Assembly (NCBI GenBank): GCA_964467345.1 | Contig: CAYXPY010000006.1 | Location: 5,303 to 69,302, forward strand | DNA length: 64,000 nt | Source: an uncultured Thermoplasmatales archaeon | Lineage (GTDB): Archaea > Thermoplasmatota > E2 > DHVEG-1 | Direction of reading: 5' to 3' | In this document: positions 21,344 to 55,066 of the stretch, one piece after another | How positions within the stretch are numbered: the first letter of the stretch is position 1 | Layout: each line of letters begins with the position of its first letter | Position numbers and translations under genes: made by a program | The notes under the pieces: generated by a model | What the model saw: the letters and a program-made list of their open reading frames with translations, nothing else | The model's database searches: none | What the model was told of the DNA's origin: nothing

Positions 21344-21364
21344 TTTTTTTTTTTTTTTTTTTTT
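21344..21364. repeat. 21-nt homopolymer (T21 on +, A21 on the coding strand) between arsS and the DedA gene
   Basis: Counted directly; overlaps the arsS TAA stop. Confidence 0.85.
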
Positions 21365-22322
21365 ATACCAATGCTCCGCCGCAGGAAGACCCATGACCTG
21401 CAGTACATCCGAAGCAATGATCCGCGGTTGCTATCTCTCGGGTTGACAGCACTGATTTATTAAACTGTTTGATATGACGTGGAGTTGTTGCCATGACTGA
21501 GAGGTTTGCTGCAAGGTTAAAATCACAGTCATAGAAGGTCCCGTCCCATGCGATGTTGATCTGATGACGACACATCAATGAAGGAAGCGTCTGGGGGTTG
21601 AATGATTCTTTCAGCAGCCTCATGTAGTGTGGTTTTTTTTCTTTTAACACATCAAGAAAACGTCCCAGCGGCATGTTGGTGAGGGTGATTAGTCTTGTGA
21701 ACTGTATGTTGTAGTGTTCTGCAAGGTATTTCCGGTACTCATTCTCAAGGGCTTTCTGTTCTGGTGGGAGCACGGGTTCAAGCGGATTAAACACGAGCGT
21801 CAGAGGCAGATGTGGTTGGATCCCGTAGCCTAGGGTATTTAACAACTGTAGTGCTGTGATGCTTTTTTCAAAGATACCTTCTCCTCGTTGAAGGCGGACT
21901 TCTTCTTCGAGATAGCAGGGGAGTGAAGCGACCAGTTCTATCCCAAGCTCTTTGTACAACAAAGGTAAATCGTTATACTCTTGTTCAAGGAGGATGGTGA
22001 GATTTGTCCGTAGTTGTACTCGATGCTGTTGTGCCACAAGAGCTCTTAGGAATTGTGTGAGATGCGGATGAAGCTCTGGTGCTCCACCGGTGATATCAAC
22101 GAAGACTGAGGGGAGTTTTTCAGTGACCGCTAGGATATCTTTCATGGTTTCCCAGCTCATCTGTTCTGTGCGGTTTGGTGATGCTTGAATATGGCAATGG
22201 TGGCAGGTTTGATTGCAGATGAACCCAAGGTTGATTTGTATGGTCTGAAGGTCAAGGCATCGTAATGTAGTACCAGTCAGGTCGAAAATTCGCTGGTCGA
22301 ATTGGTTTTTCTTCTGAGACAT
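21363..22322 (-). CDS. arsS: Arsenosugar biosynthesis radical SAM protein ArsS-like (TIGR04167/DUF3641)
   Basis: QINLGFICNQTCHHCH (CxxxCxxC), DITGGAPELH, ASLPCY, LTNMPLGRF, MCRHQ...YDCDFN, HCFGCTAGHGSSCGGAL. Confidence 0.88.
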   Translation of the reverse strand: MSQKKNQFDQRIFDLTGTTLRCLDLQTIQINLGFICNQTCHHCHIQASPNRTEQMSWETMKDILAVTEKLPSVFVDITGGAPELHPHLTQFLRALVAQQHRVQLRTNLTILLEQEYNDLPLLYKELGIELVASLPCYLEEEVRLQRGEGIFEKSITALQLLNTLGYGIQPHLPLTLVFNPLEPVLPPEQKALENEYRKYLAEHYNIQFTRLITLTNMPLGRFLDVLKEKKPHYMRLLKESFNPQTLPSLMCRHQINIAWDGTFYDCDFNLAANLSVMATTPRHIKQFNKSVLSTREIATADHCFGCTAGHGSSCGGALV

Positions 22323-27864: not shown

Positions 27865-28359
27865 TTATTTGGTTAGAACGGATCGGACGAATGCATCGAT
27901 ATGTTCTTTGCCGTTTTTTATCGTCCCTTTCCTCATCTGTAACCCCAGGAACGAATCTGATACCGCCATACCAAGACTACCAAGGGTTTGTTGCATCATC
28001 TGTCTGGGTTTCCCCTTTGGGTCTGGAATACCACCACCAGTGACAAACAGGAATACCTTTTTTCCTTTGATGTTCTGCGCAGAGGAAAAAAATGTACTAA
28101 TGAACGGTGTTGCGCTTCCTCCCCAGGTTGGTGACCCAACGATGACTGTCTCGTATTTCCCTAAATCGACGGTTGTGTTTTTTATTGGAAGCTGCTGTTG
28201 TTTCATCGCCGCCCGTCCCGCAGTAAAAAACCCTGGTCGTTTCAACGCCTCGATTTCGATTAGGTCGACATCTGCTTGTTTTTGTTGTAGTGTGTCTGCA
28301 AGTAGGGTTGCGATAGCTTTGGTGTTCCCGGTCCTTGAATAATAGACAATCCCAATCAT
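27865..28359 (-). CDS. Flavodoxin-family protein
   Basis: YYSRTGNTKAIA, IVGSPTWGG. Confidence 0.85.
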   Translation of the reverse strand: MIGIVYYSRTGNTKAIATLLADTLQQKQADVDLIEIEALKRPGFFTAGRAAMKQQQLPIKNTTVDLGKYETVIVGSPTWGGSATPFISTFFSSAQNIKGKKVFLFVTGGGIPDPKGKPRQMMQQTLGSLGMAVSDSFLGLQMRKGTIKNGKEHIDAFVRSVLTK

Positions 28360-31130: not shown

Positions 31131-32015
31131 ATGAAACAACCAGATGATGTAGTCTATGAACATACCCAGGTTGAGAATATTCTTCACCGTGTGAATGTAT
31201 GGTTTTTACCTTTTCGATGGGGAATCAATACATATCGTGGTTGTGAACACAACTGCATCTACTGTAACGCAAGATACACCCATGAGTACCTTGGGTTACC
31301 AACTGGTGAGTTCGCCTATCAAATAATAATTAAAGATAATGCAGCAGAGATTCTTGACAAAGAACTTTCAAAAGAAAAATGGAATAAGAAATGGACGGTT
31401 AATTTATCAACTGTTACCGACCCGTATCAACCAGCAGAGCGTCAATTTAAAATAACAAGAGACGTCCTAAAGGTGTTTCTCAAGCATCATAACGCTCTTT
31501 TGGTTACAACTAAATCAGATTTGATTATGAGAGATTTAGATATTCTTTCGGAGATAGCACAAACAGGTTTTCTTAATGTCGTCCTTACTATTCCTATGTT
31601 AGATGAAGAGTTAAGAAAAAAGATGGAACCCAAGGCACCAAGTATCCAAAAACGGGTTGAAGTCCTAAATAAGATTCATAGTGCAGGTGTTACAGTTGGT
31701 GTCACGGCAATTCCCCTTTTTCCTTACATATCAGATGGCGAGAAGGATTTGGAAAAACTCATTAAAACCCTGGCAGAGAATGGTGCTGATTATGTGATTA
31801 TAGATACGCTTAATTTCCGTGAAGAGTCAAGAAACAGAATCATACCTTTTATCAAAGAGCAGTATCCAACATTGGTTCCAAATTATGAAGAACTCTATAA
31901 AACAATTTACTGTGACAAAGAATATGCAAAACAGGTTAGAAAATATGCGAACAGATTTATTAAGAAATATAACGTAGATAAATACGATAAAATGTTTTCT
32001 TATCACAAAAGTTAA
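31131..32015 (+). CDS. SplB/Rv2578c-like radical SAM protein (COG1533 type)
   Basis: INTYRGCEHNCIYCNAR, STVTDPYQPAE, TTKSDLIMRDLD, MEPKAPS...R, PLFPYISD. Confidence 0.88.
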   Translation: MKQPDDVVYEHTQVENILHRVNVWFLPFRWGINTYRGCEHNCIYCNARYTHEYLGLPTGEFAYQIIIKDNAAEILDKELSKEKWNKKWTVNLSTVTDPYQPAERQFKITRDVLKVFLKHHNALLVTTKSDLIMRDLDILSEIAQTGFLNVVLTIPMLDEELRKKMEPKAPSIQKRVEVLNKIHSAGVTVGVTAIPLFPYISDGEKDLEKLIKTLAENGADYVIIDTLNFREESRNRIIPFIKEQYPTLVPNYEELYKTIYCDKEYAKQVRKYANRFIKKYNVDKYDKMFSYHKS

Positions 32016-32408: not shown

Positions 32409-32861
32409 ATGAACATCAGCATCATATACGAGTCTAAATATGGGAATGGAAAACAAGCGATGACGTATCTTGAAAAAATCTTAAGCAATAAAGGATTTTC
32501 TGTCCAACTCCTGTCAATTCATGAACTTAAACCACACATGCTTCCCGAATCGGATTTGTATATTTTTAGTGCACCGAATGCGTTTGGAAAAATCGTACGA
32601 TCCATGAGGAAATTTCTAGAGAAAATAGAGATACAAAGTCCATCTGCGCGATATATTCTTTTTAACACCTGTCTAAATCCAACATCGAAACAGGACAGAG
32701 GTCTTGAACAGATGGAAGAAATTCTCCAGGAAAAAAATATCACGAAGTTATCTGAAGGAGTAAAACTCAAGGTCATGGCAATGAAGGGACCCCTTGAAAC
32801 AGGATATGAAAAAAAACTTGATGAGATGGCTGAGACGATTCAATCAACTCTTAAGATATAA
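32409..32861 (+). CDS. Flavodoxin-domain protein (Flavodoxin_5-like)
   Basis: IIYESKYGNGKQAM, FSAPNAFG. Confidence 0.8.
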   Translation: MNISIIYESKYGNGKQAMTYLEKILSNKGFSVQLLSIHELKPHMLPESDLYIFSAPNAFGKIVRSMRKFLEKIEIQSPSARYILFNTCLNPTSKQDRGLEQMEEILQEKNITKLSEGVKLKVMAMKGPLETGYEKKLDEMAETIQSTLKI

Positions 32862-32946: not shown

Positions 32947-33519
32947 ATGAACGGAAGACCTCATGGGCTCATTGTTTATGGCACTAGTTTTGGTGCAACG
33001 AAGGCAACCTCTGAAGAAATTGCACAAATACTTCGAGCGGAAAACTTCGATATTAAGATTGTCAATGCACAAGAGGAAAAAATCAGAGACATCTCTGAGT
33101 ATCAACTCATCATCGTTGGTAGTAGCTTGGCAAATTGCAGATGGAATAACCAAGCAGAGGATTTTTTAAAAAGATTCCATAAAGAATTAGATCAGAAAAA
33201 GTTGGCTCTCTTCGTATCCTCTGTAATCACAATCGCTGAACGAGAAGGAAACAAAGAAGAAATTGTCAAAGCACGGAAATTTGCCTTAGAAGATAAAATA
33301 TCAAAGTATAGCCTCAAGCCTATCATGACAGGTATGTTTGGTGGTATCTTGAACTATAATAAAATGGGGCTCCTCGCACGGAAAGGGATGGAAATCGCTT
33401 TCAAATCGCGACTTCAAAAAAACGGATTTAAAGAGGTTCAACCTGGTGTTTATGATTTGCACAATTGGGATGAGATTCGAAGCTGGGCTAGAGATCTCGC
33501 CAAAAAGGCACGTGAATAA
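32947..33519 (+). CDS. Flavodoxin-domain protein (HemG-like)
   Basis: IVYGTSFGATKATSEEIA, IIVGSS, FGGILNY, YDLHNWDEIRSWA. Confidence 0.85.
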   Translation: MNGRPHGLIVYGTSFGATKATSEEIAQILRAENFDIKIVNAQEEKIRDISEYQLIIVGSSLANCRWNNQAEDFLKRFHKELDQKKLALFVSSVITIAEREGNKEEIVKARKFALEDKISKYSLKPIMTGMFGGILNYNKMGLLARKGMEIAFKSRLQKNGFKEVQPGVYDLHNWDEIRSWARDLAKKARE

Positions 33520-36449: not shown

Positions 36450-37400
36450 TTATCTCCGGTAAGCTATATAGATATCTGCCTCAAGCATCACTCCCTCCTT
36501 ATAGAAATGATGCACAAAGTAGACATTCCCCAGAGAATCAAGGGTTGGCTCTCCAGCAAATTGAGAAACGATAAGTTCCGGTGATTGCCAGGTCCCATTT
36601 ATTTTTACAGATCGAAACACCGCCGGGGTACCAAGATACGTCCTGGTGAACCAGAGTTCCTTACCGTCAACGGAGAGATAGGGATAGCCTTCATCCTCAG
36701 CAGAATTGACCGTTTCGATATTCACCGGAACCTGCCATTCACCTGCGACTTTTGTTGACATCCAGATATCTCGTTTTCCGTTTCCCCCAACCCGTGAGGA
36801 ATGAAAATACAGCTCATCACCCTGGATGTGCAATTCTCCGACCTCATAGTCCGGGTTGAAAGCTGCTTGTTGCCAGTCCTGCCAACCCCCCTGTTGGAAT
36901 CGAGCGAAAAACCACTGAACACCACTATACCCTTCACGTGCGGAGCAAAACCAAAGAATGTTCTGGTCAACGCAGGCACATCCATCCAAAGCAAGCTTTC
37001 CTTTCTCCTGGAGCATGACCCGCTCTGGTTTCGTCCAGTTCCCCTCCTCCAAAAGGCAAACATAAATGCCGGTGACCTCGTCAAGAACCTGCCGTTCTGC
37101 TGGAACAGACACATCAGGGGTGAAGAAAAAATACAGCTCTGCCCCATCACTGGTAATAAAAGGTGAATCCTCAGCCCCCGCGGTGTTCACGGGTCCAGGG
37201 AGGGGGACTGGTTCGCTAAAATCAGATGAATGCATCTGAGGAGGATACTGATCGTCTGCAGGAGTAAGCTTGACGGCTGTCGATGGAATCTTACTGTCCC
37301 TCTCAGGAGTAATTATAGGCTCGCTTTTTTGTTGCTCCATACAACCCGTGACCATAAGTATGCTGCTGCAGAAAAGAATGATGATGCATAGTCTCTTCAT
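36450..37400 (-). CDS. Putative lipoprotein with PD40/TolB-like beta-propeller repeats
   Basis: ILMVTGC lipobox-like; PVNTAGAEDSPFITSDGAELYF, SSRVGGNGKRDIW, VNSAEDEGYPYLSVDGKELWF. Confidence 0.8.
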   Translation of the reverse strand: MKRLCIIILFCSSILMVTGCMEQQKSEPIITPERDSKIPSTAVKLTPADDQYPPQMHSSDFSEPVPLPGPVNTAGAEDSPFITSDGAELYFFFTPDVSVPAERQVLDEVTGIYVCLLEEGNWTKPERVMLQEKGKLALDGCACVDQNILWFCSAREGYSGVQWFFARFQQGGWQDWQQAAFNPDYEVGELHIQGDELYFHSSRVGGNGKRDIWMSTKVAGEWQVPVNIETVNSAEDEGYPYLSVDGKELWFTRTYLGTPAVFRSVKINGTWQSPELIVSQFAGEPTLDSLGNVYFVHHFYKEGVMLEADIYIAYRR

Positions 37401-37422: not shown

Positions 37423-38409
37423 TTATTCGTATGTATACCGCTCAAGTTCATAACTTTTCTTTGGCCGACTCTGTGTATACTGTGCTCGCTGGATGAACTG
37501 ACCACAGTTACTTCCGATCTGGTTCTCCTCAGGAACACCAATACTCAGTATCACATCATAACCTTTTTGTCGGAATTGTTCCACAAGTATTCCCGCTGAT
37601 GCCGCATCATAGGGGTTGATCACTGAGAGAAGACCGCGTTCCAATGATCGAACCGTCGGGTTCATCGGTGTAAGTTTTATCAGAAAGCAGTCAGAATCAA
37701 AAACAGCCCTGAGTTCTTCGACATCAAGAGGATATCCTTTTACCGCTGCGAAGTTCAGAGTGATTTTTTTATCGCCATTCTCCGGTTGAAAAAAACGTCC
37801 CCCATACTGTTTTATTTGTTCAAAAGACCATTTTTTCGCAGGAATCAGTTCATCGCGTTTCTTCTCATCAGAGGTGTGAAGCGAGAATTGGAGTTGAAAA
37901 CGCCCTTCAGGATAATATCTGTTTTTGATAACGATGAGCTCATCAAAAAACCGTTCCGCAGCTGTCGTGGAAGGGGCAATGGAAGAAAGTGATATATGCA
38001 ACGATCCTGCATCATATCGGGTGGGTAGTTCCTGTAGCACATCCAGTACCGCTGGATTAAGGGAGGGTTCCCCCATGCGCGCGAACTGGATTTTGAATTT
38101 TTCTGTGAGCGGTTTGCCCTCTGGGAATCTTCGGCGTACCATAAAATCAATCTGTGAAATGATCTCCTCAGCGGTAAGACTTCCTTGAAAATCCCCTCCT
38201 GCATCACACATCTTGCACTGGACCGGACAGCCAAACATTGAGGATACGATCAGCACCCATTTCTTCTCTCGGGACAAGGGCGGCTGAATCGATTCGACAC
38301 ATTCGATCAAGTATCTCGGATGACTTTGTTTTCCTGATAGGTCCTGCCGTAGTTGCATCACATAGACCTTTGCTATCTCATCCCGCCCGTACTCAGCAAT
38401 AATCCTCAT
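37423..38409 (-). CDS. RlmN/Cfr-like radical SAM protein (atypical)
   Basis: VSSMFGCPVQCKMCDAGG, ARMGEPSLN, QFSLH, GSNCGQ; lacks the Cys of the RlmN T-L-C-V-S-S-Q motif. Confidence 0.8.
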   Translation of the reverse strand: MRIIAEYGRDEIAKVYVMQLRQDLSGKQSHPRYLIECVESIQPPLSREKKWVLIVSSMFGCPVQCKMCDAGGDFQGSLTAEEIISQIDFMVRRRFPEGKPLTEKFKIQFARMGEPSLNPAVLDVLQELPTRYDAGSLHISLSSIAPSTTAAERFFDELIVIKNRYYPEGRFQLQFSLHTSDEKKRDELIPAKKWSFEQIKQYGGRFFQPENGDKKITLNFAAVKGYPLDVEELRAVFDSDCFLIKLTPMNPTVRSLERGLLSVINPYDAASAGILVEQFRQKGYDVILSIGVPEENQIGSNCGQFIQRAQYTQSRPKKSYELERYTYE

Positions 38410-39320
38410 GATGCGTCCTCTCTTTCCTTTAGATACCGCTGTACCATCATCGCAGCAAACATCCCATCACCAACAGCAATGCCGGTCTGCCGGTATGTTC
38501 CCCGGACCACGTCCCCAGCAAAATACAATCCTGGAAGGGATGTCTGCGGTAACTTGTTACTCTCCGAGTAATACCTCAAGAGACGAGAGGTGAGAAACGG
38601 GAGATTTGGTTCCCGTCCGCAGGCGATGAGAAGATAATCCGCGGACCGTTCGATTCCCTTATCTTGTTGTCTGCATTTCAGCAACAATCCTTTAGAATCA
38701 TGCTGGATTTTCTGTACGACACAACCTACCTGAATGCTTGCCCCCTTGGCTTGGACCTGCCTTTTCAGAATCGGTAAACAGACTGGCTGTGAACGGGACA
38801 GGATAGTAACCTCATGACCCTTCTCTAACAACGTCAACGTATAATCAAAAGCGATGTCTCCTCCACCGATCACACTGATCCTTTTTTTCGTCCTGGATGG
38901 TATTTTCCTTGGCTCGTAGAACAAACGTTTTTCTTCAATGGCAGCGGCACCAGGGATAGATAGTTTCTTAGGCTTGGTTCCTGAAGCGATGATAACCGCG
39001 GAGGAAACAACACGTCCCTTCTTGGTCTGGACAGTGAAAGCATTGTTACTCTGTTCCACACGCTGTACCTCTGATTTTGTAATGGAAACCCCCACCTTGA
39101 ATAGATGCTGGACAAACTGGTCTGCAAGTGTCGTCCCACTGATTCCTTGGGGGAACCCCGGGTAGTTCTCAACAAGGAACGCATGTCTGAGCAGACCACC
39201 AGGCTGCTGACTCTCCAGGACCATGGGGTGTAACCCGGCTCGTTTGAGAAAGATTGCCGCAGCAATCCCTGCAGGACCCGCACCAAGGATGATTACCGGT
39301 GTTTCTTTACCCATGTACAA
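38406..39320 (-). CDS. TrxB-fold NAD(P)/FAD oxidoreductase lacking the CXXC motif
   Basis: GAGPAGIAAA, VENYPGF, IIASGT, IGGGDIA, FAGDV; LFYEP where CATC normally lies. Confidence 0.85.
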   Translation of the reverse strand: MYMGKETPVIILGAGPAGIAAAIFLKRAGLHPMVLESQQPGGLLRHAFLVENYPGFPQGISGTTLADQFVQHLFKVGVSITKSEVQRVEQSNNAFTVQTKKGRVVSSAVIIASGTKPKKLSIPGAAAIEEKRLFYEPRKIPSRTKKRISVIGGGDIAFDYTLTLLEKGHEVTILSRSQPVCLPILKRQVQAKGASIQVGCVVQKIQHDSKGLLLKCRQQDKGIERSADYLLIACGREPNLPFLTSRLLRYYSESNKLPQTSLPGLYFAGDVVRGTYRQTGIAVGDGMFAAMMVQRYLKEREDAS

Positions 39321-39928
39321 AGCTCCTGTGTTGTTGTCAATGTCGCAAAACCATCAGAAAGGTTTGTAAGACTCGCGGTATGGAACCTTTTTTCATCGGA
39401 TGCGGTCGCATCGGTGACGAAGAACACGTCATACCCTCGCATGAACGCGTCCCGTGCCGTGGTCTCACAGCACAGATGTGTCAAGACCCCGGTGATGACA
39501 AGACTGCTCACCTGCTGGTCCTTTAGGAAAGACTCAAGATTGGTTTGAAAGAAGGCGCTGTACTGTGTTTTCCTGATCACTGGCTCTGTTGGAAGCGGCT
39601 GAAGGGACTCGATGAGCGATGCCATGGCTTGGTCATCATAAAGAACGTCTCTCCACCAGCGACCCATTGTCCCTGTTTGTTCTGTTCGAAGCAGCGCGTA
39701 ACGGGTGAAGATCACAGGACGTTGTTCCCCTCGGTACGTCGTGATGAGTTTTTGGATGTTAGGTACTATCCGAGCCGCTTCTTTGAAATAAGCATGGGAC
39801 TGTGGATTGCAGAAATACTGTTGCATGTCGATGACAAGTAAGGCTGAAGATTCCGGGTGAAAAACAGTGGTTCTCCGTTGATGAGGATGCCCTTTTTTTC
39901 TCCCTAACGTCTTTTTTTTTGTTGTCAT
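39293..39928 (-). CDS. Isochorismatase-family cysteine hydrolase
   Basis: Catalytic triad contexts VIDMQ (Asp), IRKTQYSAF (Lys), THLCCETTARDA (Cys). Confidence 0.9.
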   Translation of the reverse strand: MTTKKKTLGRKKGHPHQRRTTVFHPESSALLVIDMQQYFCNPQSHAYFKEAARIVPNIQKLITTYRGEQRPVIFTRYALLRTEQTGTMGRWWRDVLYDDQAMASLIESLQPLPTEPVIRKTQYSAFFQTNLESFLKDQQVSSLVITGVLTHLCCETTARDAFMRGYDVFFVTDATASDEKRFHTASLTNLSDGFATLTTTQELCTWVKKHR

Positions 39929-40116
39929 TTCTCTTCCGCCTCAATACCCTGTCTTGTTTCCTGGTTTGCGAGGCTGGAAACATAAAAAAAACACTGCCTC
40001 ATTCTCTAGGGACACATATCATCGGTGGTAAAAAAAGCTAATGCTTTGGATAAACTGCTTTACGCAGGGGGAACGGTTAAATAAAAACATGGTGATTTCA
40101 TCGGTGAGATGATAGG

Positions 40117-40737
40117 ATGGCTATTGAACAACTGCGAGTTGGGTTTGACAATTTCAGTTATGTGATCTATTGTCCCGTTCAGAAAAAAGCAGCGATTGTC
40201 GACCCTGGGTTTGATGCAAAAAAACTCATGCAATTTCTAAAAGAGAACCATCTTAGTCTGGAGTTTGTCATCCTTACCCATTACCATAGTGATCATTGCG
40301 CTGAACTTCCCTCTCTGAAAAAGATAACCCCGACCGCACAGGTAGTGGCTTCAAAGGAGGATGGACAGAGACTTCCTGTACCACCGGATGTTGTCGTCTC
40401 GGATGGAAACATGCTGTTGCTTGGGACAGTCCGTCTTTCTTTTTTAGCCACCCCAGGTCATACTCCTGGTGGGATTTGCATTATTGTTGGTGATGAGGCG
40501 GTAGTGACGGGAGATACGTTGTTTATCGGGGATTGTGGCAGGACTGATCTTGCTGGCGGGAGTCTTGAGCAGATGTTTCGCAGCCTCCAGGAGAAGATAC
40601 TCCCCCTCTCAGATGAATTGGTTGTGTATCCTGGTCATGATTATGGAGCGGTACCGTTTGACACCCTTGGTCATCAGAAACGTACAAACAAGACTTTACT
40701 AGCGAAAAATCTCAAGGAGTTTTCACTGATACCATAA
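40117..40737 (+). CDS. MBL-fold metallo-hydrolase (glyoxalase II-like)
   Basis: THYHSDH, TPGHTPG, TGDTLF, YPGHDYG. Confidence 0.92.
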   Translation: MAIEQLRVGFDNFSYVIYCPVQKKAAIVDPGFDAKKLMQFLKENHLSLEFVILTHYHSDHCAELPSLKKITPTAQVVASKEDGQRLPVPPDVVVSDGNMLLLGTVRLSFLATPGHTPGGICIIVGDEAVVTGDTLFIGDCGRTDLAGGSLEQMFRSLQEKILPLSDELVVYPGHDYGAVPFDTLGHQKRTNKTLLAKNLKEFSLIP

Positions 40738-45416: not shown

Positions 45417-45896
45417 GTGCTCGATACAACACTTCTCATCGTCTATCTCGTCGTCATGCTACTGACGTTTCTATTCATGGAAGCAGTCGCGTGGTTCCTT
45501 CACAAATACGTCATGCATGGGTTTGGATGGTTCCTCCATGAAGATCATCATCGATATACAAAGAAACGTTTTGAAAAAAACGATGTCTTTGGGTTGTTCT
45601 TCGCAGGACTTTCAATCATTCTCATTTTCACCGGCTTCTTTGGAGGCTTTGATATACGCTTCTTCCTTGGTATTGGTGTTGCGATGTACGGTGCTGGGTA
45701 TTTCTTGGTACATGATATTTTCTTCCACCGGCGTGTAAAAATAAAATACCGACCGAAAAGCAAGTACATCAAACGCGTCTTACATGCCCATTCTGTCCAT
45801 CATCAAAAAAGCAAAGCACATGAAGGGATCTGCTTTGGATTTCTCTACGCAAGTAGGCAGTATGTGTTGCCTACGGAGAATTCAGCGTCAAACTGA
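45417..45896 (+). CDS. crtZ: Beta-carotene hydroxylase (CrtZ, fatty acid hydroxylase superfamily)
   Basis: MEAVAWFLHKYVMHGFGWFLHEDHH, FEKNDVF, YFLVHDIFFHRR, HAHSVHH, CFGFL. Confidence 0.92.
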   Translation: MLDTTLLIVYLVVMLLTFLFMEAVAWFLHKYVMHGFGWFLHEDHHRYTKKRFEKNDVFGLFFAGLSIILIFTGFFGGFDIRFFLGIGVAMYGAGYFLVHDIFFHRRVKIKYRPKSKYIKRVLHAHSVHHQKSKAHEGICFGFLYASRQYVLPTENSASN

Positions 45897-48033: not shown

Positions 48034-48942
48034 GTGAAACTCGTTTACCTGTGGCAGATAGTAAAATTAGCACGAATGCCGATTGTTCTGGCAGTGATAC
48101 CGATTTTCCTTATCGGTGTCTTGTTCGCACTTCGTTCTGGAGTGTCCTTTTCTCTTGTCAATTTCCTCTGGGGTTTTAGCATCTTATTTATCATTGAGAT
48201 AGCAGCGTCCTTTGCAAACGATTTCTATGATTACGACGCGGATAAACACAACAGACAATTTGGTTTCTCTGGCGGGAGTGGAGTCTTACTCGAATATCCA
48301 GAACTGCTCCCATTTGCAAAATGGGCATCAGTCATGATGTTTATCCTTGCCCTCATCTTAACAGGTTTGTTTATCGTTGTCGCATCACTGCCTCTTTGGG
48401 TCATCGCTTATATCGGTGTTGCCGTGTTTTTTTGTTGGTTTTACACCGCACCGCCACTTCGTCTTGTATATAGAGGTCTTGGTGAAATACCTCATCTATT
48501 CGCAGGAATCATGTTCCCTGGATGGGGGTATCTTATCCTGACTGGGACTATCACATCTGATCTCCTCATTTTTGCAATCCCCTTTGGGTTTCTTGGTCTA
48601 ACAGTGATACTGAATTTTGAGATACCTGACAGGGAAGCCGATATCCATGGGGGGAAACGAAATCTCGTCGTGATGAAAGGTCGGTATTTTTCTTTTCTCA
48701 TAATTTTTTTATTTTATCTGGTTACTTTTCTTTATTTTTTTATTCTCGCAGTCTTTGGCTGGTTTAATGATATCATCAATCCATGGGTGATTACAATTCT
48801 TGCGTTTCTCCCTGTATCCCTCTCTTTTATCGCTATCATTAAAAAATCTATACAACAAGATATCGCAACAAAATACGCCATACGAAATGCGATCGCTGGC
48901 TTTCTTTCGTCGTTTCTAATAATGGCATCCCTTTTATTTTAA
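48034..48942 (+). CDS. UbiA-family prenyltransferase (MenA-like)
   Basis: ANDFYDYDAD, SGGSG, YTAPPLRLVYRGLGE, EIPDREADIHGGKRNL. Confidence 0.85.
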   Translation: MKLVYLWQIVKLARMPIVLAVIPIFLIGVLFALRSGVSFSLVNFLWGFSILFIIEIAASFANDFYDYDADKHNRQFGFSGGSGVLLEYPELLPFAKWASVMMFILALILTGLFIVVASLPLWVIAYIGVAVFFCWFYTAPPLRLVYRGLGEIPHLFAGIMFPGWGYLILTGTITSDLLIFAIPFGFLGLTVILNFEIPDREADIHGGKRNLVVMKGRYFSFLIIFLFYLVTFLYFFILAVFGWFNDIINPWVITILAFLPVSLSFIAIIKKSIQQDIATKYAIRNAIAGFLSSFLIMASLLF

Positions 48943-49092
48943 CTGAAAACCTTGAGATATTGAATGTGTAACACATTTTTAGGGAATCTATATAAATATC
49001 TTTTGTAAAATTTATTTAAAGAGATCTTTTATTCCTAAAATATGGGAGTTATCTCCTAGAATAGAATCATCATGATTAAAGGGGAGTAAAGA

Positions 49093-49911
49093 ATGAAAAA
49101 AAGAACTGCAATAGTCTTGGCAATAATGCTGCTGCTCTCAAGCTTTGTCGTTGTAGGGACCACACAATCTCATCAATTAAATGACGATACTATTGAAATG
49201 AAACATGAGATTCAACCATGGTCAACACTCCAATCAGACGATGACATTACGATATCCTTTTCAAAGGCCCCATTGTCCTTAGGAGTAAATATTGAAATAC
49301 AAAACAACGGAAATGAGACCTATCAAGACGTACAATGGAGTTTTCGAGCAAAACCACAGATCTCTGGAACCGGGCTTATTTACAAAGACCAGATACGATC
49401 CGGGGTGATTGACCAACTTGGTTCCAATGAGCTGGTGACAATTCCCTTACGACCTTTGAAGGGGCAAACTTCGAGTCCTTTTGGGCTTGGGTTGTTCTAT
49501 TTTAACGCCTCGGTCAGCACCTCAGATGTCTTCTTCCGCTCTTCACAGCTGTGTTGGCTGGTGTTCTTTTTCATGGTTAATCTGAAACCAACCTACATGG
49601 ATATAGCGCCTGCAGAAGCATACAGCTTATATGAAAATGGGACTTTTAACCTCATCATCGATGTGGTTGGCTTGAATATCTATAGCCTTGGTCATCTCCC
49701 TGGCGCTGTGAATTATGTCTGGGCTGATGGGACATTAAATCAGACGATCCCCACTCTTGACAAAAACCTAACCTATCTTGTCTACTGTCACACCGATCCA
49801 CCTTCCACCGCAAGTGCTCAAGCGTTGGTCAATGCAGGGTTTTCCAAAGTCTATCGATTAGAAGGAAATTATCGAGCCTGGGTTGATGCAGGCTACCCTA
49901 CAGAAACCTAA
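49093..49911 (+). CDS. Secreted protein with an Ig-like domain and a C-terminal rhodanese domain
   Basis: Signal peptide; IIDV...GHLPGAVN...LVYCHTD...LVNAGFSKVYRLEGNYRAWVDAGYP. Confidence 0.85.
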   Translation: MKKRTAIVLAIMLLLSSFVVVGTTQSHQLNDDTIEMKHEIQPWSTLQSDDDITISFSKAPLSLGVNIEIQNNGNETYQDVQWSFRAKPQISGTGLIYKDQIRSGVIDQLGSNELVTIPLRPLKGQTSSPFGLGLFYFNASVSTSDVFFRSSQLCWLVFFFMVNLKPTYMDIAPAEAYSLYENGTFNLIIDVVGLNIYSLGHLPGAVNYVWADGTLNQTIPTLDKNLTYLVYCHTDPPSTASAQALVNAGFSKVYRLEGNYRAWVDAGYPTET

Positions 49912-50017
49912 ACACACCTTCCTTATCCCCTTCTTTATGCACCGTAACAAATAAAGTCACATAATCTTCTTAAACCACTGTAGTATACGACTAACAAGGT
50001 TTGAAAGCGGGAGACAT

Positions 50018-50737
50018 ATGATTATCAACTATCTTATCTTAGACATCCTTATAATCTTATTTCCGTTCTTACTTTCATTTAAGTGGAAATTTGCTTATTA
50101 TCGGTACTACAAGGCATTGTTCCCTGCGATTGCTATCGTAGGCACTGGCTATATCATCTGGGATGCGATTGTCACGGCGCGAGGAGACTGGTGGTTCAAC
50201 TATGAGTATCTCTCGGGAATCACCATCATCGGACTACCTCTTGAAGAGATCTTATTCTTCATTGTTGTCCCCTATTCCTGTATATTCATCTATGAGAACC
50301 TTGAGTATTTCTTTCCTGATAAAAAAATAAGATTCAACAAGATCTTCTATGTTGTTTTGATCGTATTGTTCGTTATCGGTGGACTTGCCTTCTATCATCA
50401 GGACTATACGATCCTTGCTCTGATGTCGTGTGCGTTCTTTTTCCTAGTAGCACTTTGGCGTTCCCCAGACATCCTGCAATCCCGGAACTACTGGCTCTAC
50501 ATCGGGATTTCGATGATTCCCTTCATCATTTTCAATTATCTCTTGACCTCCATTCCGATCGTTCTGTATAATCCAGCGGCCATATGGGGTGGCGATGGTC
50601 TTTGGAACGGACGGTTCTTCACCATTCCTCTTGAGGATTTCTTTTACAATTACTCGATGCTGTCCTTTTATCTCCTCGTATACGTATATTTCAAAAAACG
50701 ATGGATATCCAATAAAAAAGATAATTCTCACAGGTGA
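50018..50737 (+). CDS. crtY: Lycopene beta-cyclase, fused CrtYc/CrtYd (archaeal membrane type)
   Basis: Two repeats: IWDAIV...GDWWFN...GLPLEEILFFIVVPY and FNYLL...Y...IPLEDFFY. Confidence 0.88.
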   Translation: MIINYLILDILIILFPFLLSFKWKFAYYRYYKALFPAIAIVGTGYIIWDAIVTARGDWWFNYEYLSGITIIGLPLEEILFFIVVPYSCIFIYENLEYFFPDKKIRFNKIFYVVLIVLFVIGGLAFYHQDYTILALMSCAFFFLVALWRSPDILQSRNYWLYIGISMIPFIIFNYLLTSIPIVLYNPAAIWGGDGLWNGRFFTIPLEDFFYNYSMLSFYLLVYVYFKKRWISNKKDNSHR

Positions 50738-50746
50738 TACAACTTG

Positions 50747-50790
50747 TTTATGATTCTATATGATGTAATCATAAAATATTTATGCTATTA
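50747..50790 (+). promoter_or_regulatory. Inverted repeat overlapping a BRE/TATA-like element upstream of crtI
   Basis: TTTATGATT-N11-AATCATAAA (50747-50775) running into AAAATATTTATG. Confidence 0.35.
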
Positions 50791-50813
50791 CACATTCGTT
50801 GATAAAAAAAGGG

Positions 50814-52301
50814 ATGAACGTGGCTGAAAAAAAAATCATCATCATCGGTGCTGGATTCGGTGGCATGTCTCTTGGGGCACTGCTTGCCAAGGAAGGACAT
50901 CAGGTAACCATCCTTGAAAAAAACGACCAGCCAGGGGGACGAGCGATCGTTTGGAAAGAAAAAGGATTCGTCTTCGACATGGGACCGTCCTGGTACCTCA
51001 TGCCTGATGTGTTTGATAAATTCTTTGCGGAATTTGGGAAAAAACCAGATGATTATTACAAGCTTGTCCGACTCAATCCCGCGTACCGAGTGTTTTTCAG
51101 CAAAGATGAAATCGTTGATGTGTCACCTGACCTTGAACAGAACCTGCAGCTCTTCGAACGCTACCAGAAAGGAGGACGTGAACAACTAAAAAGATATCTT
51201 GCTGCAGCTGAGTATCAGTATCAAATTGCGATGAATGAGTTCATCTACAAGGAATACCGCCATCTCTGGGATTTCTTCAGCCTCCGACTGCTGCTTAAGG
51301 GCAGCAAACTGCATATCTTCACCAGCCTGGATGAATACGCCAAACGGTACATCACCGATCCCAAGATGCGGAAAATACTGGAATACACGATGGTGTTCCT
51401 TGGTGGGACACCCTTTGATACCCCTGCCTTGTATTCCCTGATGTCCCATGTCGACTTCAACTTAGGCGTCTGGTACCCCGATGGCGGATTTGGGGCGCTT
51501 GCAAAGGGATTTGAACGACTCGCTACCGAACAAGGTGTGGTTTTTGAGTATAACGCTGAGGTGGAAAAGATAACTGTCAGTGGCAATCGTGTCACCGGTG
51601 TGAAAACTGCAAAAGGCGACATGGCTGCTGATGTTGTGATCGCCAACGCTGATTACCCGTACGTCGAAACCCATCTGTTGGAAAAACAATATCAAACCTA
51701 TCCTGAGGAGTACTGGAACAAAAAAGCTATCGCTCCCTCAGCTCTCCTGATGTATCTTGGGGTGAAAGGAAAAATCAAGGCGTTTGCACATCATAACCTA
51801 TATTTCGCGCCTCAATGGGAGGACCATTTCAACACCATCTTCCATGACCCCCGATGGCCGCAGGACCCCTCCTACTATGTCAGCTGTCCATCGAAAACCG
51901 ACCCAACCGTGGCACCCGCCCAGGACGAAAACATTTTCATCCTCATCCCGGTAGCAGCAGGTCTACCAGACACGCAAGAAACCCGGGAGAAATATTTCAC
52001 GAAAGTCATGGACCATCTCGAGGAACTCACTGGGGAAAACATCAAGGACAGACTGATAGTGAAACGACTGTTCGCACATCAAGATTTCACACAACAATAT
52101 CATGCGTACAAAGGCACTGCTCTTGGTCTGGCACATACCTTAGGGCAGACCGCAATCTTCCGCTCCTCCCATAAGAGTAAAAAAGTAAAAGGGCTGTATT
52201 ACACCGGACACTACACACACCCAGGCATTGGAGTGCCTATGGTTATCATCTCCTCCCAAATCGTGGCTTCGGAGATAAGGAACGCATATGATCATCGATA
52301 A
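50814..52301 (+). CDS. crtI: Phytoene desaturase
   Basis: IIGAGFGG, GFVFDMGPSWY, YPDGG, YHAYKGTALG, HPGIGVPMVIIS. Confidence 0.95.
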   Translation: MNVAEKKIIIIGAGFGGMSLGALLAKEGHQVTILEKNDQPGGRAIVWKEKGFVFDMGPSWYLMPDVFDKFFAEFGKKPDDYYKLVRLNPAYRVFFSKDEIVDVSPDLEQNLQLFERYQKGGREQLKRYLAAAEYQYQIAMNEFIYKEYRHLWDFFSLRLLLKGSKLHIFTSLDEYAKRYITDPKMRKILEYTMVFLGGTPFDTPALYSLMSHVDFNLGVWYPDGGFGALAKGFERLATEQGVVFEYNAEVEKITVSGNRVTGVKTAKGDMAADVVIANADYPYVETHLLEKQYQTYPEEYWNKKAIAPSALLMYLGVKGKIKAFAHHNLYFAPQWEDHFNTIFHDPRWPQDPSYYVSCPSKTDPTVAPAQDENIFILIPVAAGLPDTQETREKYFTKVMDHLEELTGENIKDRLIVKRLFAHQDFTQQYHAYKGTALGLAHTLGQTAIFRSSHKSKKVKGLYYTGHYTHPGIGVPMVIISSQIVASEIRNAYDHR

Positions 52302-53181
52302 AACGTTCTTCTCTATCTTTCGCAAAGGAAGTCGTACCTACTTCTACAGTAGCATTTTTTTTCCAATGCACATACGACGAGAAGTATTCATCCTGTATGG
52401 GTTTGTCAGGAAAACCGATAATTACGTTGATGTCATCCCACAGGACCGTGACGGATTCTATGAGTTCAAAGAGAAATATTATCAGGCAAAACAAGGTAAA
52501 GAGACAGGAGATATCGTTATTGATTCGTTCGTCCGTTTAGCAGAAAAAAAGAAATTTCAGGATGAATGGATCGAGGCGTTCCTCCATTCCATGGAGATGG
52601 ATTTAACAAAGAAACGCTATGAGACCATCGATGAGGTGCTAGAGTATATCTACGGTTCTGCGGAAGTCATTGGTCTGATGATGGCAAAAATCATCGGACT
52701 GCCAAAAGAATCCTTCGAGCATGCCAAATACCTCGGACGAGCGATGCAATACATTAACTTCATCAGGGATATCGCCGAGGACCTGGATCTTGGACGGGTC
52801 TATTTCCCTCAAACTGATTTACGGAAACACGGACTGGCGAACCTCACCTATGACCATGTCAAAGACCATCCGGATCGATTCACGAATTTTCTTCAGACCC
52901 AGCTTGATCGGTACTGCCACTGGCAGGAGCATGCAGAGGAAGGATACCACTTCATCCCGAAACGATACCTGATATCCATCAAAACCGCATCGGAGATGTA
53001 TCATTGGACCGCTGAACAAATCTCAAACCATCCCTTTATCGTCTATGACATGAAAGTAAAACCTATGATATCAAAAATCCTTCTTACGGTGGTTTCCAAT
53101 CTCATCGATACCATGGGAACAAAATTCGGGACCTCCTTTTGTGTTGAAGCAACCCACGAAAAACATGATTCTTCAGAGTAG
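52288..53181 (+). CDS. crtB: Phytoene synthase
   Basis: KGSRTYFYSS, LYGFVRKTDNYVD, FLHSMEMD, YIYGSAEVIGLM, AMQYINFIRDIAED, GRVYFP. Confidence 0.95.
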   Translation: MIIDKTFFSIFRKGSRTYFYSSIFFPMHIRREVFILYGFVRKTDNYVDVIPQDRDGFYEFKEKYYQAKQGKETGDIVIDSFVRLAEKKKFQDEWIEAFLHSMEMDLTKKRYETIDEVLEYIYGSAEVIGLMMAKIIGLPKESFEHAKYLGRAMQYINFIRDIAEDLDLGRVYFPQTDLRKHGLANLTYDHVKDHPDRFTNFLQTQLDRYCHWQEHAEEGYHFIPKRYLISIKTASEMYHWTAEQISNHPFIVYDMKVKPMISKILLTVVSNLIDTMGTKFGTSFCVEATHEKHDSSE

Positions 53182-53186
53182 TTTCT

Positions 53187-54167
53187 ATGAATGGATTTGT
53201 CAAACCTCGCATCGTAATCAGTAAATGTATCGAATTCGAATTTTGTCGATATAATGGCCAGATAATCCGTAGTGACATCGTCAGTACGATGAAACCACAT
53301 GTTGAGTTCCTCCCGATATGCCCTGAGGTAGAAATTGGACTAGGTATACCCCGAGACCCTATCCGTATCATTGAAAAACAATCGAAAAAATATCTTGTTC
53401 AACCAACTACTGGCCGTGACGTCTCTGAAGATATGAAGAGGTTTACGGAGCGATTTCTTATTAGCCAAAAAGATATCGATGGTTTTTTGTTAAAATCCCA
53501 ATCCCCCTCCTGTGGGACCCGTGATGTGAAAATCTATCCTGCAATGACACCGTCTGCAGCAATCCGTCGAGAAGCAGGTTTTTTTGGTGACCACGTACTT
53601 ACAGATTTTCCTTTTTTGGCAATCGAAGATGAAATGCGTCTGCACAATCCAATCATACGAGAGCATTATTTTATGAAAATCTTTACGTTCGCTCGATTCC
53701 GCAGGATACAACAAGTTGGATTATTACAACCGCTACTTCGATTTCATACTGAAAATAAATTTTTACTAATGGCATACAGTCAAAAGGAGCTACGGAGTCT
53801 TGGCAACATCCTTGCCAACCAAGAAAAACAACCCTTACCTCGTGTCTTTTCAGAATACGAACAACATCTTCATACTGCATTTTCCAAAGCACCGCGGTAT
53901 ACCTCTCAAATCAACGTCCTTAATCATGTGTTTGGGTATGTCTCACAGGACCTCAAAGAAAATGAAAAAAAGTTCTATGCAAGCCTTTTACAGAAATTCC
54001 GTGATGGTCAGATTCCTCTGAGTGTCCTGATAAACCTTGTGAGATCCTGGGTGATACGATTTGATCAACCGTATCTCCTCCCGCAGACCTTTTTCCAACC
54101 CTATCCTGATGAGTTGTTCGATACTGAATCGATAAAAGCAAGCAACGTGAGAGATTTCTGGAAATGA
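53187..54167 (+). CDS. DUF523-DUF1722 protein (TudS/RudS-type 4-thiouridine desulfidase family, YbgA)
   Basis: ISKC...CRYNG, PICPEVEIGLGIPR, KSQSPSCG, AIEDEMRL, FHTENKFLLMAYS, YLLPQTFFQPYP. Confidence 0.9.
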   Translation: MNGFVKPRIVISKCIEFEFCRYNGQIIRSDIVSTMKPHVEFLPICPEVEIGLGIPRDPIRIIEKQSKKYLVQPTTGRDVSEDMKRFTERFLISQKDIDGFLLKSQSPSCGTRDVKIYPAMTPSAAIRREAGFFGDHVLTDFPFLAIEDEMRLHNPIIREHYFMKIFTFARFRRIQQVGLLQPLLRFHTENKFLLMAYSQKELRSLGNILANQEKQPLPRVFSEYEQHLHTAFSKAPRYTSQINVLNHVFGYVSQDLKENEKKFYASLLQKFRDGQIPLSVLINLVRSWVIRFDQPYLLPQTFFQPYPDELFDTESIKASNVRDFWK

Positions 54168-55066
54168 AGATAGGATACCCCTGCATTAACCGCTCCCTTT
54201 CCTGCAAGGGAGACCGTACGTTCCGTTTACGCTCGTATTCAGAAGAAAGACTGCAGCAGACCATTCAAAATAACCTTGAGTGCTTGTTCCATATATTACG
54301 ATTCAATCTCGACCACGGGCTGCTCTTTTTCAGAATCTCCTCAGACCTCATTCCCTTCGCATCTCATCCTGTCTGTACGTTCCCCTGGCAGAGGGTGTTT
54401 CAAAAACGTTTCGAGGAAATCGGTCAGTTCATTATAAAAAACGACATGCGCATCTCGATGCATCCAGATCAATTCATCGTACTTAATACACCTAGGGAGG
54501 ACGTCTTTCAACGCAGTGTCGCAGAGATAGCCTATCATGCCAACGTCCTTGACCTCATGGGCCTTGATACATCAGTAAAAATACAGCTTCATGTTGGTGG
54601 CGTCTATGGGGAGAAGCAAAAAAGCATGGATCGGTTTATCAGTCGGTATCGCTCATTAGATGCTACATTGAAGCATAGACTTGTTATCGAAAACGATGAA
54701 AAAAGCTACAGCATCAAGGATTGTCTCCTGATACATGAAAAAACCAAGATTCCGGTTCTTTTTGATTATTTTCATCATACCTTGCTTAATGATCATGAAT
54801 CCTTAAGCGACGTGTTAGAATCCTGTAAAAAAACCTGGAAACCAAAAGACGGGATCCCTATGGTCGATTATAGTTCACAGAAGCCTCAAATGAAAAAAGG
54901 ATCACACGCAGAACATCTAAACAACCATGATTTTTCCAAGTTTGTTCATCAATCAAAACCATATGATTTCGATCTGATGTTGGAGATTAAAGATAAGGAG
55001 CATAGTGCAATTAAGGCACTCAAGATTCTACAATCTGATTACCGACTTGTCTCTCCAACAAAATAA
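54164..55066 (+). CDS. uvsE: UV DNA damage endonuclease
   Basis: MKIGYPCIN, FFRISSDLIPFASHP, RISMHPDQF, HVGGVYG, IENDEK, FDYFHH, MLEIKDKE. Confidence 0.95.
   Translation: MKIGYPCINRSLSCKGDRTFRLRSYSEERLQQTIQNNLECLFHILRFNLDHGLLFFRISSDLIPFASHPVCTFPWQRVFQKRFEEIGQFIIKNDMRISMHPDQFIVLNTPREDVFQRSVAEIAYHANVLDLMGLDTSVKIQLHVGGVYGEKQKSMDRFISRYRSLDATLKHRLVIENDEKSYSIKDCLLIHEKTKIPVLFDYFHHTLLNDHESLSDVLESCKKTWKPKDGIPMVDYSSQKPQMKKGSHAEHLNNHDFSKFVHQSKPYDFDLMLEIKDKEHSAIKALKILQSDYRLVSPTK

Follow-up and report, generated by a model that had tools for sequence, protein, structure and literature searches.

A conserved gene trio joins a one-cysteine relative of RlmN to a CXXC-less flavoprotein and a cysteine amidohydrolase in uncultured archaea and bacteria

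Analysis of a 64,000-nucleotide (nt) stretch of contig CAYXPY010000006.1 (assembly GCA_964467345.1) from an uncultured Thermoplasmatales archaeon, referred to here as the window, revealed three overlapping genes that encode an amidohydrolase of the isochorismatase fold (IsoC), a flavoprotein related to thioredoxin reductase (TrxR) and an enzyme of the radical S-adenosylmethionine (SAM) type related to RlmN. According to the list of open reading frames (ORFs), the three form a head-to-tail run, all on the minus strand. The locus contains the following elements.

39929-40116, no strand: divergent intergenic region 5′ of the trio, from reading of the DNA
39293-39928, minus strand: IsoC, isochorismatase-fold cysteine amidohydrolase of 211 amino acids (aa) (Pfam PF00857)
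38406-39320, minus strand: TrxB-like, CXXC-less TrxR-like flavoprotein using flavin adenine dinucleotide (FAD) and NAD(P)H, 304 aa (Pyr_redox_2)
37423-38409, minus strand: radical SAM gene, RlmN-related and with one catalytic cysteine, 328 aa (best named family RlmN TIGR00048)

Reading of the DNA gave an overlap between IsoC and the TrxB-like gene of 28 nt with the TTG at 39320 as the start of the latter, or of 22 nt with the ATG two codons farther on, and showed that the TrxB-like and radical SAM genes share the 4-nt overlap ATGA. This confirmed the overlapping arrangement described in the original prediction, which had been made from the letters and ORFs of the window. An A/T-rich TTTTTTTATG box (39990-39981, minus strand) may be an archaeal promoter; it stands about 53 nt 5′ of the IsoC ATG. 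In a species-level genome scan, the nearest match to the locus was a metagenome-assembled genome (MAG) of uncultured Thermoplasmatales (92% identity). Metatranscriptome contigs from a soil study match parts of all three genes and span the IsoC/TrxB-like junction, which is weak evidence that the trio is expressed.

Conservation was analyzed in a scan of one genome per species, which revealed relatives of the radical SAM gene in at least 583 species. The best 80 loci were examined, and synteny was counted in the 65 of them that had enough upstream sequence. The TrxB-like gene lies directly 5′ of the radical SAM gene in all 65, most often with the same 4-nt overlap, and the full colinear IsoC–TrxB-like–radical SAM trio occupies one strand in 60 of the 65, in both domains of life. 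Among the best 80, the archaeal loci are from Thermoplasmatota and Methanomassiliicoccales, and the bacterial loci are from Chloroflexota (Anaerolineales), Acetothermia, Fraserbacteria, Eisenbacteria, Planctomycetota, Ignavibacteriae, Acidobacteriota, Myxococcota, Latescibacterota and Clostridia; the radical SAM family is found in at least ten bacterial phyla, and its archaeal and bacterial copies are approximately 50% identical. No fourth conserved gene emerged when all neighbouring ORFs of the 80 loci were clustered, and methyltransferase, glycerol-dehydrogenase-like and MttB-like neighbours proved to be lineage-specific.

Profile searches and Pfam architectures also revealed fused forms, both of the TrxB-like and radical SAM proteins (P0124, 625 aa; P0147; P0180) and of the radical SAM and isochorismatase proteins (P0145, P0152, P0157, P0166 and P0189, with Elusimicrobiota as the source of the named members in three of these five clusters). 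Directly upstream of the P0124 fusion, and overlapping its start, lies a separate gene for IsoC. The existence of both pairwise fusions, together with the synteny, indicates that the three proteins work together, and it is very likely, judging from these gene arrangements, that the three genes form one module. The suggestion of a self-contained trio, for which a lack of conservation had been named as the counter-evidence, therefore withstood the neighbourhood analysis.

Two loci have an adenine phosphoribosyltransferase-like gene just upstream of the trio. One is an unclassified metagenome contig carrying the fused P0124 form (L088, 524-1075), where this gene precedes the IsoC gene, and the other is a Thermoplasmatales MAG (L024, 5346-5819), where the homologous gene is located about 700 nt upstream. 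In a bacterial locus (L061, 1175-3007), one of the five without an adjacent IsoC, genuine TrxR-like and lipoyl synthase-like genes occupy the IsoC position upstream of the CXXC-less TrxB-like–radical SAM pair. In the window itself, a lipoprotein-like gene with TolB/PD40-like repeats (36450-37400) begins 22 nt past the radical SAM stop codon, and a divergent metallo-β-lactamase-fold (glyoxalase II-like) gene (40117-40737) lies on the other side of the trio. These two flanking genes accompany the trio only in its closest relatives (L001-L004) and are outside the conserved module.

The best named family for the radical SAM protein is RlmN TIGR00048, with a score of 47.2 bits against a cut-off of 290 bits; the Cfr models gave 30-36 bits against cut-offs of 468-550. 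Sequence and profile searches of the PDB likewise returned RlmN and Cfr as best matches (E 1e-6 to 4e-10, the latter value with a profile), and these are the only named families and solved structures that the sequence matched. Alignment to E. coli RlmN (L082) located the key positions.

38250-38248, minus strand: I54, at the position of RlmN C118
38229-38206, minus strand: cluster motif C61-x3-C65-x2-C68
38076-38065, minus strand: SAM motif M112-G-E-P
37506-37504, minus strand: C302 in SNCGQ, aligned with E. coli RlmN C355

In this alignment, I54 (VLIVSSM) faces the resolving C118 of RlmN (TLCVSSQ), and C302 (NCGQ) faces C355 (ACGQ). Residues retained from RlmN include E39, S56, M112-G-E-P, H178, R185 and C302-G-Q (radical SAM protein numbering). 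The radical SAM protein lacks a counterpart to roughly the first 60 residues of E. coli RlmN, which form its N-terminal helical domain, and has two insertions relative to RlmN. Class A methylases are defined by two conserved cysteines; C118 of RlmN is described as indispensable for resolving the protein–RNA crosslink, and the electron source for the RlmN cysteinyl radical is described as unidentified (PMC9692996). Across 70 archaeal and bacterial orthologues, M112-G-E-P is invariant and C61, C65, C68 and C302 are the sole invariant cysteines. In 53 representatives, which are the full-length members of 50%-identity clusters from a library of 1.8 billion proteins, a cysteine is never found at position 54 (0/53) but is found at position 302 in 52. 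Neither set contains a second conserved cysteine besides C302 and the cluster ligands.

The original prediction had thus read the motifs correctly (CxxxCxxC, MGEP, the CGQ cysteine, and WVLIVSSM for TLCVSSQ), and its description of a non-canonical RlmN/Cfr protein agrees with the missing resolving cysteine, the missing N-terminal domain and scores far below the cut-offs. It had also asked whether the cysteine of ECVES, C37 here, might stand in for the resolving cysteine. This candidate was ruled out, as most orthologues have Phe at that position and only 43% have Cys, and no equivalent conserved cysteine was found elsewhere in the protein. On the evidence of these alignments, the family has the methyl-carrier cysteine and a large part of the active site of RlmN/Cfr but is missing a feature by which RlmN/Cfr are defined, and the enzyme is not an RlmN/Cfr orthologue. 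Isoelectric points were uninformative as an indicator of RNA binding because E. coli RlmN itself has an isoelectric point of 6.6.

The TrxB-like protein matches Pyr_redox_2 (Pfam, E 2e-34) and scores 179 bits against the TrxR model TIGR01292, which has a cut-off of 343. Alignment to TrxR 2q7v placed its FYEPRK opposite CATCDG, which identified the following replacement.

38918-38907, minus strand: Y135/R138 in place of the TrxR redox cysteines

The GxGxxG (GAGPAG), GxGDxA (GGGDIA) and C-terminal GD motifs are present and conserved in 67 orthologues, and no conserved cysteine pair was seen in the same set. It follows from the replacement of CXXC by Y...R that thioredoxin reduction by the TrxR mechanism would be impossible. 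The absence of CXXC noted in the original prediction was therefore verified. The prediction had added that CXXC-less TrxB folds can act as ferredoxin–NADP+ reductases (FNRs); by sequence, the protein is much closer to TrxR (PDB 2q7v, E 7e-35) than to TrxR-type FNR structures (E 3e-14 to 4e-11). It is best seen, from these comparisons, as a TrxR derivative in which the CXXC was lost. Three flavodoxin-like and two further radical SAM genes, one of the latter with a DUF3641 C-terminal domain, are located within 16 kb upstream of the trio (27865-28359, 31131-32015, 32409-32861, 32947-33519 and 21363-22322). With flavodoxin-like genes in the window, the trio flavoprotein is not the sole possible electron donor in the genome.

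IsoC matches the Isochorismatase family PF00857 with E 4.5e-47 (160.8 bits against a 27-bit cut-off) and has the catalytic residues expected of a cysteine amidohydrolase.

39829-39827 (D34) and 39472-39470 (C153), minus strand: with K120, the IsoC triad, conserved in 51 orthologues

The same 51 orthologues conserve family-specific SHA and WW motifs, and the N terminus of the protein is a basic tail of about 27 aa. Among named families it matches BiuH (76 bits against 370) and RutB (76 against 378) best, and it falls below every cut-off for assignment to the BiuH, RutB, PncA or YcaC equivalogs. EntB has Gly at the aligned position of the IsoC nucleophile Cys. The isochorismatase label given in the original prediction is to be corrected: IsoC is, on sequence grounds, of the cysteine-amidohydrolase type and no true isochorismatase.

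Beyond the trio family, proteins of sister clades (approximately 130 bits) have the same one-cysteine layout, with TCGN or TCGK in place of NCGQ, and a profile–profile comparison of the trio family with a sister clade gave E 8e-43. Many of the sister-clade genes are on phage or phage-like contigs, usually within replication or nucleotide-metabolism modules. These one-cysteine RlmN-like proteins have TCGN and no Cys at the C118 position. Bacteroides phage Versailles (ON453897.1, 15696-16703; L094) carries such a gene, and in Moorella phage MTATph1 (OR602862.1, about 105123-106085; L099) the gene adjoins thymidylate synthase and is apparently split into two coding sequences. Four metagenomic phage-like contigs (L083, L085, L089 and L096) also encode sister-clade proteins, and on jumbo-phage-like contigs the gene occurs with ribonucleotide reductase, NUDIX and nucleotidyltransferase genes. 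On rumen metagenome contigs (L091-L093, 5001-6608), the gene directly downstream of a phage-type radical SAM gene encodes an isochorismatase fold preceded by a CxxC-x-CxxC zinc ribbon at the N terminus, so that the pairing of these two kinds of gene is older than the trio.

A further group of relatives is fused to QueT. P0231, from a Bacilli MAG (L095, 8001-10445; MCQ2753177.1), is an 814-aa fusion of a QueT-type transporter, a radical SAM domain and a domain resembling methylthioadenosine/S-adenosylhomocysteine (MTA/SAH) nucleosidase, of which the NCBI name covers only the last, and P0232 is a QueT–radical SAM fusion. We suspect that the QueT fusions are QueL-like queuosine-salvage units; to our knowledge, no radical SAM enzyme other than QueL has been described in queuosine salvage. 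Six sister-clade proteins scanned against NCBIfam gave no QueL match, no C. difficile names appear in the sister-clade homologue lists, and Rfam gave no preQ1 riboswitch upstream of the QueT fusion at L095. QueL is described as a C. difficile radical SAM queuine lyase that converts the free base queuine into preQ1 (Yuan et al. 2019, as cited in a passage of PMC11130926; also a passage of PMC12632869). Judged by sequence and gene context, these relatives point to bases or nucleotides, and not to ribosomal RNA, as what the entire one-cysteine clade acts on.

We propose that the trio is one module for small-molecule radical SAM chemistry, with electrons supplied by the flavoprotein and a hydrolytic step catalyzed by IsoC, and we assign this reading a probability of roughly 0.45 as the best explanation overall. 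The radical SAM enzyme would be a descendant of the RlmN/Cfr lineage that binds one [4Fe-4S] cluster at C61, C65 and C68 and SAM at MGEP, with C302 as the covalent catalytic residue, most likely methylated by SAM as in RlmN. The 5′-deoxyadenosyl radical would abstract a hydrogen from S-methyl-C302, and the C302 methylene would then add to an sp2 carbon. Transfer of the methylene/methyl group from S-methyl-C302 to that carbon is the most likely reaction, although methyl transfer as the specific outcome is possible yet somewhat unlikely. The substrate would be a free and probably nucleobase-like small molecule that carries or acquires an amide or ureido group, and IsoC would hydrolyze this group on the substrate or product. 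Electrons could pass from NAD(P)H through FAD either to the cluster or to the Cys-CH2-substrate/thiyl intermediate that is handled by C118 in RlmN; the flavoprotein would thereby replace the role of C118 plus the electron donor in RlmN. It is about as likely as not that the flavoprotein serves as a redox partner and that a small molecule is acted on. We infer the small-molecule substrate, the electron route and the methyl transfer, and the fusions and sister clades point the same way for all three. Hints of a base or nucleotide substrate come from the phage nucleotide modules, the QueT/nucleosidase fusion, the rumen pairing with an isochorismatase-fold gene and the upstream phosphoribosyltransferases. 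The most specific version of the proposal is a flavin-assisted, one-cysteine ‘class A-like’ methyl/methylene transferase for a free nucleobase-type metabolite, in which resolution and re-reduction, the part of the second cysteine in RlmN, would fall to a dedicated NAD(P)H flavoprotein and the amidohydrolase would complete the pathway; in that full form it is quite unlikely.

Several observations weigh against the small-molecule proposal. RlmN was not among the top Foldseek matches of an AlphaFold 2 model of the radical SAM protein (pLDDT 82, pTM 0.85), which were instead the generic radical SAM folds SuiB, TYW1, NifB and SPL; sequence and profile searches do find RlmN, and we give the structural outcome little weight beside them. 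The phage and QueT-fused relatives exist without the flavoprotein, and the radical chemistry may therefore proceed without a reductase of its own. A non-methylating role of the conserved cysteine is possible should the QueT-fused relatives be queuine lyases. Recycling of adenine from 5′-deoxyadenosine could be all that the adenine phosphoribosyltransferase-like neighbours do. Rfam searches of nine bacterial loci, the window and the region upstream of the QueT fusion gave no riboswitch or leader that names a substrate, no transporter or pathway gene is linked to the trio among the 80 loci, and a literature search found no paper on the trio.

A rival reading is a lyase acting in salvage. The radical SAM enzyme would then cleave a C–N or C–C bond of a scavenged modified purine or 7-deazapurine in the manner of QueL, IsoC would strip an amide or ureido group, the flavoprotein would perform a redox step and a usable base would be regenerated, with the conserved cysteine used differently. 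The nearest clades beyond the trio family include P0231 and P0232, the former with its nucleosidase-like domain; QueL, itself a radical SAM enzyme, is described as turning queuine into preQ1 (passages of PMC11130926 and PMC12632869); BiuH and RutB, the best named matches of IsoC, are ureido/carbamoyl hydrolases; and phosphoribosyltransferase-like genes stand 5′ of the trio at L088 and L024. We nevertheless consider salvage unlikely, because QueL (CD1684, UniProt Q186P0) is only a suspected member of the sister clade, the trio has no link to Q-salvage genes (tgt, queK, qrtT/queT) among the 80 loci, the Rfam searches gave no preQ1 riboswitch in any of the regions covered, and the trio keeps the exact CGQ of RlmN where the QueT-fused and phage clades have CGN or CGK.

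A very unlikely explanation is that the enzyme is an RNA (or DNA) adenine C-methyltransferase, that is, an RlmN/Cfr paralogue in which a non-cysteine base resolves the crosslink and the neighbours serve as helpers. This would fit the source annotations, which read 23S rRNA (adenine2503-C2)-methyltransferase, the restriction of structural and family matches to RlmN and Cfr, and the retained methyl-carrier cysteine and active-site residues, but it must contend with a score of 47 bits against the 290-bit RlmN cut-off, with the absence of the N-terminal helical domain and with an ‘indispensable’ C118 that is never present. Loci of rlmN or cfr show nothing like its obligate coupling, and fusion, to a flavoprotein and an amidohydrolase, and a patchy distribution over two domains with approximately 50% archaeal–bacterial identity is more in keeping with an accessory module that can be transferred than with a gene for ribosome maturation. 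As both the resolving cysteine and the N-terminal RNA-binding domain are missing, we propose that the radical SAM enzyme methylates neither rRNA nor tRNA, and it is highly probable that it is not an RNA methyltransferase. Each of the three domain families is common and widespread, so a general thioredoxin-type reductase and a generic hydrolase might have come to lie beside a radical SAM gene by chance, with unrelated housekeeping roles. This is extremely improbable given that the colinear trio recurs in 60 of 65 loci from two domains of life with conserved 4-nt coupling, that both pairwise fusions exist, that all 67 flavoprotein orthologues lack the CXXC needed for thioredoxin reduction and that the surrounding genes differ between loci.

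Some other roles were also considered. An anti-phage defence system was rejected, as PADLOC gave no meaningful match. Methylation of archaeal lipid backbones, as in the butanetriol tetraethers of Methanomassiliicoccus, was considered because of the taxonomy and rejected because the family is equally common in bacteria; a paper on butanetriol tetraether lipids names neither RlmN nor isochorismatase. A PLSDB search gave no match that would indicate plasmid carriage of the trio. Elsewhere, the window encodes a carotenoid-type cluster (45417-45896 and 48034-53181) comprising a UbiA prenyltransferase, lycopene cyclase, phytoene desaturase-like amine oxidase and phytoene synthase, with a gene of the fatty-acid-hydroxylase family nearby. 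At 53187-55066, a 2-thiouracil desulfurase (TudS-like) plus DUF1722 gene is situated immediately 5′ of a UvdE UV-endonuclease gene and overlaps with it. That the window is archaeal is borne out by an ORF resembling the RFC large subunit, recognized from its translation, and by FEN-1 and PurP-type genes assigned by Pfam.

Annotation pipelines label the trio proteins ‘23S rRNA (adenine2503-C2)-methyltransferase’, ‘radical SAM protein’ and ‘isochorismatase family protein’. The rRNA methyltransferase label is very probably wrong for the radical SAM family, and the trio instead represents a distinct three-enzyme module that hundreds of uncultured anaerobes, archaeal and bacterial alike, encode. Because the methyl-carrier cysteine is kept and the resolving cysteine is never present, the family offers a natural experiment on adduct resolution and cysteinyl-radical re-reduction in class A chemistry, and the constant tie to a CXXC-less flavoprotein makes this question directly testable. 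A flavin-assisted one-cysteine system, if real, would be the radical counterpart of the flavin-dependent reductive methylations catalyzed by ThyX and TrmFO, and could serve in the anaerobic making or salvage of a widespread modified purine, pyrimidine or cofactor precursor. The phage sister clades and the QueT fusion suggest a wider, unexplored group of one-cysteine RlmN-like enzymes that may act on nucleobases or nucleotides.

The trio was also compared with characterized systems. The radical SAM protein shares with RlmN and Cfr (PDB 3RFA, 5HR7, 6FZ6, 9P0P) a single radical SAM domain with CxxxCxxC, a β-strand extension in which VE(S/T) is conserved, the SAM motif GMGEP with the Met equivalent to RlmN M176, SLH and RDE motifs, and a C-terminal mobile-loop Cys in CGQ that is homologous to the methyl carrier (RlmN C355, Cfr C338). 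It differs from them in that a hydrophobic residue replaces the resolving cysteine (RlmN C118, Cfr C105) with no other conserved Cys, that the helical RNA-binding domain of about 60 aa at the N terminus is absent, and that it is always paired, and sometimes fused, with a flavoprotein and an amidohydrolase. The flavoprotein has the two-Rossmann-domain FAD/NAD(P)H fold of the low-Mr TrxRs with all nucleotide-binding motifs and 30-40% identity to bacterial TrxR, but Y...R replaces the redox CXXC. It lacks CXXC just as TrxR-type FNRs do, yet is far less similar to known FNRs (E about 1e-14) than to TrxR, and unlike both it is dedicated to one radical SAM partner. IsoC has the fold and Asp-Lys-Cys triad of RutB, BiuH, CSHase and PncA (PDB 3IRV), and RutB and BiuH, its best named matches, are hydrolases of ureido/amide (carbamoyl) groups. 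In contrast to other isochorismatase-like hydrolases, it carries the SHA and WW motifs and an N-terminal extension, and is tied genomically, and in Elusimicrobiota by fusion, to a radical SAM enzyme.

The QueT-fused relatives, with approximately 130 bits and the one-cysteine layout, have the architecture expected of a queuosine-salvage enzyme and may be QueL-like. Unlike QueL, the trio family has no link to Q-salvage genes, and it is set apart from the candidates for a QueL clade by NCGQ rather than TCGN/K and by two extra partner enzymes. A parallel to the fusions P0124, P0147 and P0180, and a precedent for a flavin partner within the protein, is found in eukaryotic TYW1, which is described in PMC8941971 as a radical SAM enzyme with a flavin-binding domain. 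The flavin-binding domain of TYW1 differs from the two-Rossmann-domain FAD/NAD(P)H reductase fold of the trio, however, the radical SAM domains belong to different families, and the substrate of TYW1 is tRNA. The trio is thus best described as a widespread new form of the class A radical SAM theme that is mis-annotated in public data.

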